Origin: a virus
Taxonomy: Duplodnaviria; Caudoviricetes
IMG/VR virus record: IMGVR_UViG_3300020044_005320
Coordinates: 1-26,441 of that record
Length of the DNA stretch: 26,441 nucleotides
Direction: 5' to 3' (one strand)
Below the pieces are notes generated by a model. The model saw only the letters and a list, made by a program, of their open reading frames with translations, was not told the DNA's origin and did not search any database. This document shows positions 1 to 7,448 of this stretch, piece by piece. The position numbers were made by a program, and so were the translations under genes. Position 1 is the first letter of the stretch. Each line of letters opens with the position of its first letter.

Positions 1-242
1 CATACCGTCACGCGGACGAGGTGCTACTACCAAACGGGACAGAGCAGCCATTACCAGAAACTGATGGCGCTATCGTAGTCAAGGTGCGCCCTCGCAGTTA
101 TGAAGTCGTACCTGCTGACGTTACAGAGTCGACCTTCAAATTTTTTAGGCACATACAGGTTGCGTGGCGGTGGCAACACGAAGCAAGCAAAGATGTACTC
201 GGTCGTCCAATCCGTCCGATCGCAGAAGAGGTAGGTGCATAA
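1..242 (+). CDS. PD-(D/E)XK / Cas4-like phage exonuclease, C-terminal part (truncated by window)
   Basis: Frame open from window start (..YRHADEVLLPNG..), resembling the QLxAYRxA motif region of actinophage exonucleases; its TAA overlaps the next ATG (TAATG 240-244). Confidence 0.55.
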   Translation, partial: YRHADEVLLPNGTEQPLPETDGAIVVKVRPRSYEVVPADVTESTFKFFRHIQVAWRWQHEASKDVLGRPIRPIAEEVGA

Positions 243-1312
243 TGCCAATCCTTACATTACAACGCAAACTCACCGAGGTTGGTCGTATCCGTCTTGGTGC
301 CAAGTCAGGCAAAGGTGCACCAACAAAACTCGAAAACTTTCGCCTCACCAGCAAAAGCAAAGAGGCAATAGATGCTGCTGCCGAAGTATACGGTGGCACA
401 GTCGGTACGTGGTCTGGCCCGGACGGGCAAGAGTACGAACTAATCACAGAGACCAATACGCTTGACGTAGTTGTCCCACCAGGCAACGCCCTCTCCCAAT
501 GGTATGAGATGTGGTCTGGTGCAGGATGCCAACGTCGTTGCGACGGTCAGACAGAAACACTATCAGGCAGCCCATGTAAGTGCCCAACAGATCAGGCACA
601 ACGTACAGAGCTGTCAGGAAGGGGGCAAGCATGCCGCCCAACAACACGCCTATCAGTAATCCTACCGCAAGTACGAACAGTGGGAATCTGGCGCCTCGAA
701 ACTCACGGCTATCACGCAGCAACAGAACTCGCAGGTGTGGCAGAGTTATTGGAAAGAGTAAGTGCAAACGACCGCTACCTACCCGCTACCTTACGTCTTG
801 AACCACGCTCGTCAAAGAAGGGTGGCAAGACATCACGCTTCGTTGTACCAGTACTTGAAGTAGGAGCAACCGTACAGGAAGCTATTGCTGCATCTGCCGG
901 TACAGAAATCCCACAGGTTGAGTATCGTAAGATGCCAAGTGTAATGACACAGACCCGTGCTGCAATCAGTGAGCCTGACTTCGACAATGATGAAGAGGTT
1001 GTAACAGAACCTATTGTCAAGGTTGTTGAGGCTAAGCCCGTAGTAGAAGAGCCGCCACTTGACGACAACCCATTTGGTCTTGATGAACCGTCACCGGTAG
1101 ATGAGCCAGTTGCTGCCGCTAAACCAAAAGCTATCAACTACACCACCCGTATCCAGATACTGCGACGTGAACTCGGCTTGACCGACGAGCAGTACAAAGC
1201 AGGTCTATCCAAGTACGGTGTATCCTCATCAAAGGATCTCACACCAGAACAAGCAGCAGAAGTTATTGAGAAGTTATCGGCAGCCGTGGCAAAAAAGAAA
1301 GCCAGCCAATGA
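242..1312 (+). CDS. Gp3-like recombination directionality factor (phiC31/phiBT1 gp3 family), 356 aa, with acidic linker and C-terminal helical domain
   Basis: Motifs VGRIRLG, KLENFRLTS, AEVYGG, RRCDG, GSPCKCP, GIWRLET are collinear with phiC31 gp3 motifs as recalled (VGRFHSG, QLFGG, HHCDG, GQPCGCP). Start moved from 164 to ATG 242 because of TAATG coupling. Confidence 0.8.
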   Translation: MPILTLQRKLTEVGRIRLGAKSGKGAPTKLENFRLTSKSKEAIDAAAEVYGGTVGTWSGPDGQEYELITETNTLDVVVPPGNALSQWYEMWSGAGCQRRCDGQTETLSGSPCKCPTDQAQRTELSGRGQACRPTTRLSVILPQVRTVGIWRLETHGYHAATELAGVAELLERVSANDRYLPATLRLEPRSSKKGGKTSRFVVPVLEVGATVQEAIAASAGTEIPQVEYRKMPSVMTQTRAAISEPDFDNDEEVVTEPIVKVVEAKPVVEEPPLDDNPFGLDEPSPVDEPVAAAKPKAINYTTRIQILRRELGLTDEQYKAGLSKYGVSSSKDLTPEQAAEVIEKLSAAVAKKKASQ

Positions 1313-1945: not shown

Positions 1946-3566
1946 CACACAGGGACCAAGACTGGCCAACCTATCAGCGGAAGCCGCTCTACTCGGTCAC
2001 CTCATAAACCACCCTACCTCACTTGATCTCGTCACCGAACATCTCGGACCTGCCGATTTCAGCAACTCACGCAACTCTGCTATCTACTCCGCAATCTGTA
2101 TCGACGCCGTTGAGGTGGGTACAGTAAGCCTTGCCTCTATCGTGGAGCAAATGCGTAAGGACGGCTCACTCGGTGAGGTTAGCGAGGGCTACCTACACAA
2201 CCTAACCAAAGCTGCCTGCGACGAGAAGGAACTGAAACTAAACGCCGCTATCATCATTGACCTATCAGCCAAGCGTGAGAAGATGATGGCAGCGCAGTCA
2301 GTCGTAGCAGCAGTTGCCCGTGGTGAGGACGACACAATCGCCTTCGATAAGTTGCTTGCTGTCCAGGATCGCCAGGTCACCGACGGTGATGGCTTCGCCA
2401 AGTTAGGCGACACCATGAAGGACATCATCAGCGGTAACTACACCCGCATTGAACCAACCATACTACGCCGCAGCGATGGTCAGCACCTAATCTATGCTGC
2501 CAAACTATCCTGGGTATCAGCCCCACCAGAGGCATTGAAGTCGTTTGCCATGCTTCTTGCCAGCGTACAAGAGATGCAAGCCGGTCGTCCAGTTGCCTAC
2601 GTGGACTATGAGGACGACGCTTCTACAATCTGCGAGCGCCTTTACAAAGTTGCGGTAGGTCAGCAACTCGATAACGCCGAGGAACTCGTGATGACATGGG
2701 TAGCCGGTCCGCTCTATGCAGACGGTAGCCGCGACGAGTCAAAGGCACTGTTCCACTACATCGCAGCTGGCCGCGCCTTCGACATGAAGATGCGATCCAT
2801 ACTACTCAAAGTCATCAAGCGTGGTGCACAACTGATAACCATTGACGGTTGCGCCAGTGCCCTGGCATACGCTAACCTAAACGAGAATGACAACAGCGAT
2901 GTGAACCGTTGGATCTCAACTCTCTGGCCACTGACAAACGCCGGTGCAGCCGTAGTGGTAATCGACCACGTAGTCAAGAACACCCAACCAGGTAGTGGTG
3001 CATTCGGTGCTCGCTCACCTCGTGGTGCCGGCTCAAAGTTATCTGCGGTATCCGGTGCTGCTCTTATGTTCTCCGTGCTCGACGCACCCAGCGCATACAG
3101 CGACGGCAAAATCGAAATCACCGTGGCTAAGGACCGGCCTGGCCGTATTCGTGTACAGAAGCGTAGCGGTAAGCGCTTAGCCGGTGTACTGATGAGCAAG
3201 CCAATGGAGGGTGGGCGTGAGGGTATCCAACTCACTATTCACCCAGCCGAAGAAGTCAGCCAGATGGTCGAGCAAAAGCGCTTCGACCTGGTATGTGCAG
3301 AGCACATCTCCAAGATCGTCAAGGAACTCGGCCCAATCAGCAAGACAGAAATCCGCAAGGTTCTCAAAGAACGTGCTGACGCAAAAGGTACTTCTGGTTT
3401 CAGAACAGAGACTACCGTAGCAGCCATGAAGTTCCTTGCTGACAATGGCTATGTCCGCATGGAGAAGAACGAACGGCAAGAGATGCTTATCTCCCTGATT
3501 CCATACGAAGCCACTCACGGCGACAAGCACGCCGATGACATTGGCTATGAGGAGTCGCCCTTCTAA
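1932..3566 (+). CDS. Replicative helicase-like protein: DnaB N-terminal domain plus RecA-fold (RepA/AAA_25-like) domain
   Basis: AEAALLG..L.PADF...N..IY is DnaB-N-like; degenerate Walker A APPEALKS, YVDYED, Walker B LITIDG, VVIDH and AKDRPG motifs. Confidence 0.75.
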   Translation: MELLDTQGPRLANLSAEAALLGHLINHPTSLDLVTEHLGPADFSNSRNSAIYSAICIDAVEVGTVSLASIVEQMRKDGSLGEVSEGYLHNLTKAACDEKELKLNAAIIIDLSAKREKMMAAQSVVAAVARGEDDTIAFDKLLAVQDRQVTDGDGFAKLGDTMKDIISGNYTRIEPTILRRSDGQHLIYAAKLSWVSAPPEALKSFAMLLASVQEMQAGRPVAYVDYEDDASTICERLYKVAVGQQLDNAEELVMTWVAGPLYADGSRDESKALFHYIAAGRAFDMKMRSILLKVIKRGAQLITIDGCASALAYANLNENDNSDVNRWISTLWPLTNAGAAVVVIDHVVKNTQPGSGAFGARSPRGAGSKLSAVSGAALMFSVLDAPSAYSDGKIEITVAKDRPGRIRVQKRSGKRLAGVLMSKPMEGGREGIQLTIHPAEEVSQMVEQKRFDLVCAEHISKIVKELGPISKTEIRKVLKERADAKGTSGFRTETTVAAMKFLADNGYVRMEKNERQEMLISLIPYEATHGDKHADDIGYEESPF

Positions 3567-4294
3567 TGAGGTTTCTTACGCTGTCCCAAGATGAGCTGTC
3601 CGTTCTCGCAGACACAGTTCGTCTTGGGCTGCGCAAGAAAGCAACGGAGGAGCAGCGCCTTGCTGCTGACCAAGCACGCACGTCCCTTATAGAAGCCTAC
3701 GCCCCTCTGGTGGTGAGGCTATCTGACCGGTATGTGGGTAAGCTCGGTCGGCAGGAGGCGCTGTCCGCCGCGTTCTACGGTTGTGCTCTTGCACTAAACT
3801 CATGGAACCCAGACAAAGGCGCACTGCCATCTTGGATACGATTGTATTGTAAGTCGTCTCTGATCCGTGAGGTAGACAAGCAGCAACACATCCGACTACC
3901 ACAAACAGCAATGGCCAAGAGAGCCAAGATAGAACAGTTACGTGGTCAGCAAGTTAGCCTTGACGACATTGCACACTTGGTTGGTATGACACCAGATGAG
4001 GTCACCGACCTTGAACAGACAGCAAAGGTTACGACGCTTGTTGATGAGACGCATGACCGGGCTGTTGACGACGCAAGCGAGCACGCTCTTGCTGCACACC
4101 TTGCAACACAACTTCTCGATACTCTCGACGCTTTGGGCAAGTTCGTTTTGTCTGCGCGTTTCGGTGTCGGGTATAACGGGTTAGTCCACTCGTATGAGGA
4201 GCTGTCAAGTTTGATGGGCCTTTCGGTATCAGAGGTTGCCGTTATTGAGGCTAACGCTCTTCGTCATCTTCGTCAAGAAGCTGCACCAGTTTGA
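3566..4294 (+). CDS. Phage-encoded sigma-70 family factor (divergent)
   Basis: Region 2-like LVVRLSDRY..WNPDKG..HIRLP, region 3-like HTH (LDDIAHLVGM), region 4-like RFG..SYEELSSLMGLS..IEANALRHLR; TAATG coupling at 3564-3568. Confidence 0.85.
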   Translation: MRFLTLSQDELSVLADTVRLGLRKKATEEQRLAADQARTSLIEAYAPLVVRLSDRYVGKLGRQEALSAAFYGCALALNSWNPDKGALPSWIRLYCKSSLIREVDKQQHIRLPQTAMAKRAKIEQLRGQQVSLDDIAHLVGMTPDEVTDLEQTAKVTTLVDETHDRAVDDASEHALAAHLATQLLDTLDALGKFVLSARFGVGYNGLVHSYEELSSLMGLSVSEVAVIEANALRHLRQEAAPV

Positions 4295-4676
4295 TCGTAA
4301 GGGCGGCAAGGTCTTCACCGGCTAAGCCAGGGTGTACCCGTGCCACCTCGTCAGCAGCGTCCCAGAATGCTTTGGTTGGTTTACGATTACCCTTTTCCAG
4401 TTCGTAGTAATCTAAGAAGTCCGTCATGGTTGGCAGTGCCCCATACCATAACCAGTCTGGGCACTCACCCTCGTGAACATGGCAAGACGTATTCTTGTAG
4501 ATACGCCGGCCACAACCACCACAATGAAAGCATAGATCCTTACGGGCTTTCAGTCTCTTGCCACTGGTTACCTCACCAAGATCGGCATAGGCCACAAAGG
4601 TATGGAAGCAAGAGAGGTCGCAAAAAGGCAAAGCCGCCCCTTCTCCGGTCTGGACAAGAAACGGCAATGCCTTCAT
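4251..4676 (-). CDS. Hypothetical Cys/His-rich (putative Zn-binding) protein, 141 aa
   Basis: FCDLSC, CFHCGGC and CHVHEGEC clusters; ATG 15 bp after the integrase stop; 3' end overlaps the sigma gene by 44 nt. Confidence 0.55.
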   Translation of the reverse strand: MKALPFLVQTGEGAALPFCDLSCFHTFVAYADLGEVTSGKRLKARKDLCFHCGGCGRRIYKNTSCHVHEGECPDWLWYGALPTMTDFLDYYELEKGNRKPTKAFWDAADEVARVHPGLAGEDLAALTIKLVQLLDEDDEER

Positions 4677-4677
4677 G

Positions 4678-4691
4678 CAGTAGTAGGTGTC
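4678..4691. repeat. Inverted copy of the attP-like inner half-site plus central dinucleotide
   Basis: CAGTAGTAGGTGTC versus the reverse complement of 6710-6723 (CAGTAGTAGTTGTC): 13/14 identical; fills the gap between int and the downstream gene. Confidence 0.7.
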
Positions 4692-6485
4692 TTATGCGGC
4701 CACCTTTGGAGCGATGACCTTAGCCCAATCAGTACCCAAGTTCAAGACGCTGCCGTCCTGGAACTCAATCTGGATACGGCGGTAGTCGGTGTGCCAGCCA
4801 AGATCAGCCAACTGGTAACGGTTGAGAATGTCAGTGACGGGGCTGATACGGATCTGCTTGATGTGCGAGTTCACGGTCCGATACACACCGAGACGATGAT
4901 CGGGATTGTTCCATGCCTGCTCAAAAACCACAGACCCATTGACAATCTGCTTGACCAGCTTGGTCCGCACGAGGTTATCCCCATCCATTTTGTCAAGGTC
5001 ATCCCGCATGGCTTGGATTACAGCCCTGATACCCACTTGATCGTACCTGCTGGCTGCTTCAAGTTCCGCCTCCTTAGCCTCAATCTGGACAAGAAGGGCA
5101 TCGCGCTCTGGATTCTCCTTTGGCTTTTCTTCCAGCGCCTTAGAGACCCGGCTCATCTCAATGGGATTGGATAACCAACGCTCCACCATCTCATAGACAA
5201 TCTGGTCAAGACCAGTCATAGTGATTGTGTTGGATACGCAGGTTCCATTTGTCCTGTGATTACAACGGTACTTTGGATAACGCCCACCCTTGCCATTGCC
5301 GCCAGTACCACCAACCATGCCATTGCCACACTTTGCGCAGACAACGAGACCAGTAAGGCGAGTACTTGAACGCTTTGCACGCTTGACGTACTTCTTATCC
5401 AGTACCGCAATAGCTGCGTAGAACTTCTCGGCAGTGACAACCTGCTCGAAAGCAATGATTGGGTTACCGGCCTTGTCTTTCGCAATGTGCTTCGCATTGA
5501 AGCGCGACCAAGACTGCTGGCCAACCTTATGTGTCTGGAAACCAGCATAGCGAGCATTGCGAATCATACCATGCAGTGTGCGATTATCCCAGCCGTTCTT
5601 GCTACCACGGCGTGAGGGAATGCCGAGACCGTTGATCCAGCGAGCTATGCTTGCCGTGCTGTTGCCCTCGATTACCTTATCGTACAGTAGGTTTACGAAA
5701 GCAGCCTCACTCATGCCGTCTGGTAGGTAGTCGGTTGGGTCGTGGTTCACAACCAAAGTAGGGTGAATCTCCCCTTCCTTGATGACGCGCTTGAAACCAA
5801 TCGGCGTGGGGCCACCGCGAAAGTAGCCCTCGTCAGTACGACGCTTGTGGGCGTCAGTAGCACGCTGCTTCAAGTGGCGGGCTTCACCTTCCGCAACACG
5901 CACCAGGGATGTGAAACCCCAGTCGTGGTTACGGTCATGAATGTCCAAGTACGGTGACTGCTGAATGTGTAGGTGCACATTACGCTCACGTAGGATCGGC
6001 AGCACACGGTTCCACACTTCTTCCAGACGGGTAAACCGGTCAAACATGTAGGTCCAGATGTGAATAGGATTGTCGCCCTCAAACATCTCGATGAACTTGA
6101 TCATCGCGTCAAACTTAGGGCGGACAATGTTCTTGGACGCAGAGCCATTCTCCGGTACTTGTATGTGCATGTCATTATTGAAGTCAATGACAAAGCCCAT
6201 AGCTGTTGCCATTTCGGTAGTCTGCTGGTTCTGGCGATCGATAGACACAGACTCCTTCTTGCTGCGTGATAAGCGCAACTGAAAGAAGTGGATTGGCTCG
6301 GCATCTGGATTGACGACGCGTACATTGGAAGCCTTGTATGTAATAGAGTTCTGCTTGATCAGGTCCGTTTCTATTTGGGTACGACGTCCTCCCAGCGGAC
6401 GGTGCTCCAACTGGGTACGTGCCTTGATGTCAGCAAGTAGATCCTCGACGCTTGTCAAGTCTACGTTATTCTGGTTCTTGCTCAT
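4692..6485 (-). CDS. int: Large serine recombinase (integrase), 597 aa
   Basis: Catalytic QLRLS..SIDRQ, RPKF, DRFTR; recombinase domain GGPTPIGF..IARWIN..IRNARYAG; zinc ribbon LTGLVVCAKCG..YRC..C; coiled coil. ATG 6485 is preceded by SD GAGGAG. Confidence 0.95.
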   Translation of the reverse strand: MSKNQNNVDLTSVEDLLADIKARTQLEHRPLGGRRTQIETDLIKQNSITYKASNVRVVNPDAEPIHFFQLRLSRSKKESVSIDRQNQQTTEMATAMGFVIDFNNDMHIQVPENGSASKNIVRPKFDAMIKFIEMFEGDNPIHIWTYMFDRFTRLEEVWNRVLPILRERNVHLHIQQSPYLDIHDRNHDWGFTSLVRVAEGEARHLKQRATDAHKRRTDEGYFRGGPTPIGFKRVIKEGEIHPTLVVNHDPTDYLPDGMSEAAFVNLLYDKVIEGNSTASIARWINGLGIPSRRGSKNGWDNRTLHGMIRNARYAGFQTHKVGQQSWSRFNAKHIAKDKAGNPIIAFEQVVTAEKFYAAIAVLDKKYVKRAKRSSTRLTGLVVCAKCGNGMVGGTGGNGKGGRYPKYRCNHRTNGTCVSNTITMTGLDQIVYEMVERWLSNPIEMSRVSKALEEKPKENPERDALLVQIEAKEAELEAASRYDQVGIRAVIQAMRDDLDKMDGDNLVRTKLVKQIVNGSVVFEQAWNNPDHRLGVYRTVNSHIKQIRISPVTDILNRYQLADLGWHTDYRRIQIEFQDGSVLNLGTDWAKVIAPKVAA

Positions 6486-6657
6486 TTTGAATCTCCTCTG
6501 GTTGGTCGTTGGTTGGAGCCGCAAGGACCATTGTGGATAGGATGAAGTTGAGGCCGGCCAGTAGGTTGGCCTGCATCATTGGGGTAGCTCTCTCGGCTAT
6601 GTAGTCAGCGATCAAGGTTGGGATAGATTCTCCCTCGGGGGTGGGTATGTGGGTCAT
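6466..6657 (-). CDS. Small hypothetical protein (63 aa) between attP and int
   Basis: ATG at 6657; helical/hydrophobic core and acidic tail; overlaps the int start by 20 nt; no clear SD. Confidence 0.35.
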   Translation of the reverse strand: MTHIPTPEGESIPTLIADYIAERATPMMQANLLAGLNFILSTMVLAAPTNDQPEEIQNEQEPE

Positions 6658-6699
6658 GCCCCATACGGTGCGGCCCCCTGGCGGTTTGGCACATGCCCC

Positions 6700-6745
6700 G
6701 TGCTTTCTCGACAACTACTACTGGTAGTAGTTGCTCTAAAAGCAC
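6700..6745. other. Putative attP site of the serine integrase
   Basis: GTGCTTT-ctcga-CAACTACTAC-[TG]-GTAGTAGTTG-ctcta-AAAGCAC: perfect 10-bp inner and 7-bp outer inverted repeats about a 2-bp centre; intergenic, ~215 bp upstream of int. Confidence 0.8.
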
Positions 6746-6802
6746 CGTGCCTTTATGAGTGGTCTTACGGCTCTACGACATACTATTCGGGGCCAGACCC
6801 CC

Positions 6803-6888
6803 AAAAGCAAGAAGCCCCACCACCCCACACAGATGAGGGTTGATGGAGCGGATGCCACCTCAATGAGAGAGTTGAGGCAGGGGGCTTC
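6803..6888 (-). terminator. Branched intrinsic terminator ending the late operon
   Basis: GAAGCCCC/GGGGCTTC outer stem enclosing inner hairpins, followed on the - strand by TTGCTTTT; 8 bp after the holin stop. Confidence 0.6.
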
Positions 6889-6896
6889 CTGTTGTC

Positions 6897-7448
6897 TTAG
6901 TGGATTTCGATCTCGCCATCCTCATCCGAGACGACAAGGCCGTACGCCCCATCGTAGGGGTTGAGCCAGCGGAGCAGGACGGGCAGGGTAGCAGCTACAC
7001 CGGCGGAGGCATAGGTCTTCCAATCGTCAAGGCTAATCGAGAAGACGTCCCCAGCATCCAGCACCTTGCCAATGACGGCAGCTGCAAAGATAGCCAAAAG
7101 GACGCGAGCGTAAGAGGCTAACATAGCCAGTGAGGTATCTGTCATGGTATTCCTGTTCTGGTGAGGACACTCACCGTATGAGTTTTTGGCAGAGTTGCAG
7201 TTGCTACACAGCACCTGAAACTGGTCAGTAGGCCATTGCCCTGTCTTGTGACGTAGGCTACGGACTATCTTGACTACCGGCGCACCTTTGGCGGCTCTCC
7301 GGTCAGCTTGCCCCCCGCCGTTGATATGATCGAAGGTGAGAAAGCGGTGGTCTCTCTCGCCGCAGCAGCGGCAGATGGGTCGCCCATTGGCTATGCCAGC
7401 AAGAGCCTCATAGCGTAGGTTGGCCCGGTATCCGGGTTTATCGGTCAC
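6897..7448 (-). CDS. HNH endonuclease domain fused in frame to an actinophage-type holin; holin probably also starts at internal ATG 7145 (82 aa)
   Basis: N-terminal CRCCGE..LTFDHINGGG..VLCSNCNSAK..YGECPH; C-terminal MLASYAR..AGVAATLPVLLRWLNPYDGAYG with two hydrophobic helices; AGGA before ATG 7145. Confidence 0.75.
   Translation of the reverse strand: MTDKPGYRANLRYEALAGIANGRPICRCCGERDHRFLTFDHINGGGQADRRAAKGAPVVKIVRSLRHKTGQWPTDQFQVLCSNCNSAKNSYGECPHQNRNTMTDTSLAMLASYARVLLAIFAAAVIGKVLDAGDVFSISLDDWKTYASAGVAATLPVLLRWLNPYDGAYGLVVSDEDGEIEIH

Follow-up and report, generated by a model that had tools for sequence, protein, structure and literature searches.

The stretch of DNA analysed here, 26,441 nt in all and referred to throughout as the window, is a 26.4-kb phage fragment carried by freshwater metagenome runs, with terminase, portal, lysin, helicase and sigma factor genes recognised by Pfam; we call it a fragment because a 39.5-kb contig carries identical helicase and Cys-rich proteins. 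A large serine integrase gene (int) stands here between an attachment site, attP, and a gene for a Cys/His-rich protein, and the spacer between the two genes holds an inverted copy of half of attP, which we call site 2 (Table 1).

Table 1. Features of the integrase locus and associated genes, in window coordinates.
Feature	Position	Strand	Remarks
Gp3-like protein (phiC31 directionality-factor family)	164..1312	+	Pfam PF18897, E 2.7e-44
Phage sigma factor	3566..4294	+	Convergent with Cys-rich gene; Pfam/PHROG
Cys/His-rich gene, 141 aa	4251..4676	-	Directly downstream of int; 3' end overlaps convergent sigma-factor gene
Site 2 (inverted attP half copy)	4678..4691	-	attP core (4678-4679) plus inner 12 bp of int-proximal arm
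Large serine integrase, 597 aa	4692..6485	-	Pfam Resolvase, Recombinase, Zn_ribbon_recom; C-terminal -AA
63-aa ORF between attP and int	6466..6657	-	Overlaps int start; homologous 68-aa ORFs in L001 and L002
64-aa ORF crossing attP	6649-6843	+	From the ORF list
attP, imperfect palindrome	6697..6748	.	Core TG at 6722-6723; outer GTGC and inner CAACT motifs in both arms
Conserved stretch, holin side of attP	6762..6785	-	Kept in L001/L002; similar in L020 by eye

The catalytic R-L-S of the integrase is intact, and R71, L72 and S73 are invariant in an alignment of 12 homologues. Its C-terminal -AA (window 4692-4700), which we take to be a possible ssrA-like degradation tag, recurs in 11/12 close homologues, the other one ending in -VA. 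The 141-aa Cys-rich protein gave no match in Pfam and none above 0.9 in the ESM Atlas; three homologous clusters were found at 68-100%, and the Cys and His residues are invariant over six aligned sequences. The 63-aa ORF, which had no PHROG match, is a candidate directionality factor or regulator; it varies with the int allele, and ORFs of 61-67 aa also precede int in the related loci L025, L033 and L034. The Gp3-like protein is a possible RDF, and next to it an 84-aa ORF at 1309-1563, HTH-like by eye, has homologues in several related loci and matched neither Pfam nor PHROG. The conserved stretch beyond attP carries a second copy of a hexamer that overlaps the int stop and is a possible int promoter region; a sigma-70 scan found no promoter on this holin side of attP.

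The sequence-only reading of the window had taken the palindrome at 6697-6748 to be attP and had tied the copy after int to it, and both points are borne out. Its further statement, that no repressor lies adjacent, is provisional, the window being a fragment and the 84-aa ORF being HTH-like by eye. The assignment of attP is well supported because assembled contigs join foreign DNA to its core and because the palindrome is kept in two other integrase alleles. In two contigs of run X1 the holin-side arm is joined to a foreign stretch of at least 255 letters, with the joints lying before 6719 and before 6722; 6722 is also where contigs of X1 and X3 break. The foreign letters are absent from the window, and one of the foreign arms was not found in the GTDB representatives. 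The joints suggest integration junctions with at least two different targets, the foreign DNA presumably being host DNA; two targets fall below the bar of 'more than 3' that is given for multi-targeting in PMC10083194. The two foreign sequences joined at the core (6719-6726) in this one run differ from each other, and one shares three core-adjacent bases with attP.

The two other alleles are those of L001 and L002, whose palindromes (650-701 and 274-325, respectively) have the same outer GTGC and inner CAACT motifs with changed inner bases. Both records end inside int, and no close integrase relative whose DNA continues beyond the int stop was found in viral_contigs or genome_contigs. Since the holin-side backbone of L001 is nearly identical to that of the window, int-attP modules have been swapped in this phage. 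On the int-sense strand the attP core reads TG in L002 and CA in the window and L001, a difference that would either turn round the polarity of integration or point to another target. At least two integrase alleles (window 4702-6520), the window type and one assigned to P0002 (60% identical) by length and by-eye translation of loose ends, coexist in runs X1, X3, X5 and X7; the P0002 type is the commoner in X5 and stands at 14% depth in X1, and in X3 and X5 it keeps 4672-4701 unchanged. An X5 contig has a 38-nt stretch in place of about 80 nt after the holin stop (window 6818-6899), and the region is also shorter in L002, possibly through an insertion in the terminator region. Together, int and attP look like an ordinary phage large serine integrase pair whose integrase is apparently active.

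Between the int stop (4692-4694, minus strand) and the ATG of the Cys-rich gene at 4676 lies a spacer of 15 nt (4677-4691), of which 14 are taken up by site 2: 4678-4691 is the reverse complement of 6710-6723 at 13/14 positions, and the cores on the plus strand read CA (4678-79) and TG (6722-23). All of this agrees with the sequence-only reading, as do its caveats about the rest of the element, whose outer part matches at 2/12 and whose other arm matches at 4/12. Inverted 14-mer pairs with at most one mismatch arise readily by chance (the window has 120), so the significance of the copy rests on its anchoring to the attP core. The copy is the sole other match in the window to the 14-mer with at most one mismatch, and two such matches occurred in 0/100 shuffles; for a core-anchored half-site the expected number is 0.015 over the window and 3e-5 at up to 50 nt from the stop. 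On the shuffles and this core-anchored expectation we reject a pure chance origin: site 2 is a genuine feature, linked to attP.

The copy follows the int-proximal arm, agreeing with its inner 12 bp at 11/12 positions against 9/12 for the holin-side arm, and it ends exactly at the core, which would place a crossover 1 nt before the ATG. The inner arm and core include an exact 9-nt match; the single mismatch lies in a pentamer that is conserved across all six arms of the close attP family. In the structural model of PMC3783163, the recombinase domain reads the inner 12 bp of attP and attB alike, and the zinc-domain motif of attB is shifted 5 bp inward. That shifted motif scores 1-2 of 9 in both arms of site 2, which is chance level; site 2 holds the inner region and the core with neither an attP-placed nor a shifted zinc motif. 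The spacer has no Shine-Dalgarno-like run, unlike most neighbouring genes.

We compared the locus with 29 viral loci fetched by helicase profile. Serine integrase genes occur in nine related records, of which two (L019 and L020) have the orientation of the window and seven the opposite one. The Cys-rich gene is found in 3/29 of the helicase-linked loci (L019, L020 and G011, the last identical with L030), each time adjoining a serine integrase gene. L019 and L020 keep the gene order of the window, with a helicase 56% and an integrase 23-24% identical to those of the window and an integrase C-terminus other than -AA; being 96% identical to one another, they count as one replicate. Four further loci have a protein of 945-968 aa in the integrase position (L022 12432-15338, L023 12844-15726, L031 12482-15325 and L037 12346-15183), and the two of these that were scanned had no Pfam match. 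Two other candidate relatives were discarded: L003, the only match of the Cys-rich and sigma protein scans, was spurious, and L004, from the scan for the attP and flank pattern, was a chance match with no integrase-like ORF by eye.

The spacer of L019 and L020 is 21 nt long and 12/19 identical to that of the window in the register of the ATG, a score reached by about 0.1% of 19-mers; the spacer is therefore old, and part of the likeness may be old shared ancestry. Set against their own predicted int-proximal attP arm, inverted, these spacers match at 15/25 and 14/25 positions (shuffle p = 0.0008 and 0.005), and at 9/25 against the attP arm of the window; site 2 of the window matches its own arm at 13/25 and the L019/L020 arm at 10/25, and the two arms are themselves 10/25 alike. 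The projected core falls 1 nt before the ATG in both lineages, in each the best of 25 registers tried, with the L019/L020 match noticed before the register was fixed. The attP of L019 and L020 is predicted from the palindrome only, the two loci are AT-rich (34% GC), and the motif shared by spacer and arm is TATA-like. The match sits in the outer arm; the inner 12 bp agree at 5/12 and the core is TA against CA in the window, so that clean recombination would not be expected there.

An 11-mer shared between spacer and arm has exactly three copies (at most one mismatch) in each of the L019 and L020 loci, all in the flanks of int. One copy lies outside attP, beside the presumed promoter and within a small palindrome, and is operator-like in sequence. 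By eye, the promoter-side element at 13485-13505 of L019 resembles site 2 of the window in blocks of 7 and 9 nt with four extra bases between them. In G011 the Cys-rich gene is divergent from int, with the predicted attP 177 nt upstream, and no copy of an arm stands before that gene (5/25 and 7/25).

As a background we chose, for host variety, 13 of 197 phage records with a serine-integrase match and took the best palindrome per locus as attP, a rule that agrees with the annotation in the sole annotated record (L013). An inverted arm copy after int was found in 0/13 of these loci. One uniform test was applied to 21 loci, with L026 and L035 omitted for their closeness to L025 and L034. The window, L019 and L020 alone gave inverted matches of 11-12 of 13, and none of the remaining 18 exceeded 10; L025 has a direct match of 11/13, to a weak palindrome.

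The explanation we prefer, tentatively and at somewhat under even likelihood, is that site 2 is a half-site bound by the integrase, not routinely recombined, which gates or damps the downstream Cys-rich gene. The minus-strand unit would run from a promoter probably on the holin side of attP through the small ORF and int to the Cys-rich gene; Int would bind attP for integration and, when abundant, site 2 as well, forming an operator or roadblock where the Cys-rich gene begins, and the copy would be held in step with its cognate attP because one protein reads both. The arm copy is common to the two lineages and the match of the recombination core is not, which argues for binding rather than routine recombination; the operator-like third copy of the 11-mer, the constancy of 4672-4701 under the P0002-type allele and the want of an attB-type shifted motif in site 2 point the same way. 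The last point is weak, because no clear shifted motif is present in the natural junction arms either (3/9 and 4/9, scored by eye), and their match to attP is poor. The sequence-only reading had listed an Int-binding half-site as an alternative to its main proposal, and it is this alternative that fits the comparative data better. Against it, the copy includes the core, stops there and reproduces positions that differ between the attP arms, and binding needs neither; the matched part is the inner arm in the window and the outer arm in L019 and L020; and the sole mismatch of site 2 falls in the conserved pentamer. The covariation, for its part, comes from a single, AT-rich replicate lineage with a palindrome-predicted attP, a TATA-like motif and a register fixed afterwards, and the homology of the spacers may partly reflect shared ancestry.

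That homology would also suit an old operator or promoter element whose reader is a different protein (some phage regulator, the product of the small ORF, or the Cys-rich protein itself); its motif would recur in or near attP, and part of the longer match in the window would be coincidence. The hexamer overlapping the int stop occurs three times in the window against 11.5 expected, always on the minus strand and around the int module (4689-94, 6762-67 and 6894-99), and the third copy of the 11-mer in L019 and L020 lies outside attP in its small palindrome. We nevertheless think such an element very unlikely: it leaves the exact 9-nt match to inner arm and core unexplained, the hexamer is absent from the promoter-side position in L001 and L002, and two of its three copies merely begin with a stop codon.

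Pairing within RNA would also link the two segments, since a single predicted transcript contains both and their complementarity holds in both lineages: in the leader of that transcript, the attP arm would base-pair with the spacer, and translation of the Cys-rich gene would be blocked, once integration had removed the hairpin partner of the arm. The duplex is predicted at -18.6 kcal/mol, against -25.0 kcal/mol for the intact attP hairpin. Such pairing would have to act over 2 kb across a translated gene, and the attP hairpin of L019 covers the paired part incompletely; we rate it as most improbable.

In ending cleanly at the core and carrying arm-specific bases, site 2 resembles a product of strand exchange, which keeps two recombinational explanations viable. 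One is that site 2 is a scar, an attP arm and core that Int linked, in a past flip or capture of the int module, to the leader of the Cys-rich gene, and that has since decayed without a present role. An arm-specific copy ending at the core has the look of a hybrid between a P arm and foreign DNA; integrase orientation varies in the family (two against seven of nine), int-attP modules have been swapped in one backbone (L001), and the spacer lacks the Shine-Dalgarno-like run of most of its neighbours. We judge a scar unlikely all the same, as the same position must have been hit in two lineages with different attP sites, or one old copy must have tracked each attP; the outer arm must have been overwritten by the 3' end of int; and the single mismatch in 14 bases speaks for a recent origin, at odds with the age of the spacer (12/19 with L019). 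A related idea, that Int exchanges cassettes between site 2 and attP, we rejected, since L001 replaces both attP arms.

The other recombinational explanation is the one put first by the sequence-only reading, a self-inverting int switch. As that reading argued, the arrangement of the cores (TG/TG, in inverted orientation) would allow inversion and not excision; matching cores are required for recombination by serine integrases and set its outcome, as described in PMC3836970. In such a switch, Int would recombine attP with site 2 as an attB mimic and flip 4680-6721, splitting attP and cutting int and the Cys-rich gene off from their promoter; were Int and a directionality factor to flip the segment back, packaged genomes would show the sequenced orientation only. 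The geometry has a parallel in hixL and hixR, which share the core and 12 bp, the other half of hixR being 4/12 symmetric as counted from Table 3 of PMC3241671. Two foreign junctions in one run further suggest a relaxed choice of target: by eye, their arms match the inner 12 bp of attP at 5/12 and 3/12, so that natural junction partners would be as degenerate as the poor arm of site 2 (4/12).

We looked for the inverted form in assembled contigs of 4 of 20 freshwater runs (X1, X3, X5 and X7, of which X1 and X3 are possibly the source of the window sequence), bearing in mind that contigs drop rare variants. None of the six joints listed for these four runs changes strand, while foreign joints at the attP core are present, and in each of the four runs site 2 is crossed by a single contig (X1 3000-6726 at a depth of 1474, X3 3509-4701, X5 4107-4701 and X7 3976-5088). 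An abundant second isomer is therefore unlikely, and a rare one would stay hidden in contigs; even the second integrase allele, at 14% depth, left the X1 contig unbroken. An inversion switch is thus not supported by these runs, on evidence that is weak for rare isomers. The core match is also missing in L019 and L020, L002 has the opposite attP core, and a P-like inner arm without the shifted motif would be a poor attB under the model of PMC3783163, where pairings other than attP with attB are inefficient. Overall we regard the switch, in a rare or one-way form, as quite unlikely. An inversion assay is described in PMC12286644. The literature we searched, largely non-subscription, yielded neither a natural self-inverting large serine integrase nor a half-site after int.

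Comparison with known systems places the locus beside the phage large serine integrases phiC31, phiBT1, Bxb1 and A118/LI (PMC3783163, PMC3836970). It shares with them a three-domain integrase, a pseudo-palindromic attP of about 50 bp upstream of int, a 2-bp core with an outer motif, integration at the core and a gp3-like gene, and differs in the added inverted half-site after the int stop and in having at least two junction partners. The H-segment of Salmonella, which contains hin (PMC9368917), and the Din invertases resemble the window in carrying the recombinase gene within inverted sites, one outer half of which is poorly symmetric (PMC3241671, PMC9368917); the enzyme here, however, is a 597-aa large serine integrase with a zinc ribbon, not a small Fis-dependent invertase, and one of the two sites is a working attP. 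Because the enzyme class differs and a second orientation was not seen, we do not place the locus among the Hin-type segments.

Closer to the bound half-site that we prefer is KplE1 IntS, an integrase that represses its own promoter inside attL (PMC2951348) and so offers a precedent for repression through att-binding sites; in the window, too, an integrase would repress by binding recombination-type sites close to where a gene begins, with the difference that the half-site here is detached, stands before a downstream gene and is predicted to be bound. Mycobacteriophage BPs, described in PMC4557955 as having a proteolysis-tagged integrase and integration-dependent immunity, is similar in the -AA end of the integrase, a possible degradation tag, and in an attP so placed that integration would alter expression, and dissimilar in that the window has no repressor gene shown to span attP.

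A self-inverting switch is not the best-supported reading of the extra inverted half-site after the int stop. To our knowledge, large serine integrases are thought to use only attP and attB and the products of these sites. If site 2 does recombine, the locus would be a natural self-inverting integrase switch, in which attP is destroyed and int and the next gene are silenced as an alternative to integration, to be reversed before packaging: a Hin-like device on an integration system. The locus also presents swappable int-attP alleles with covarying sites, which are useful for learning how integrases change specificity. That two lineages each have a half-site following their own attP suggests that binding by the integrase serves a further, regulatory purpose in the circuit by which this family of uncultured freshwater phages decides between lysis and lysogeny.
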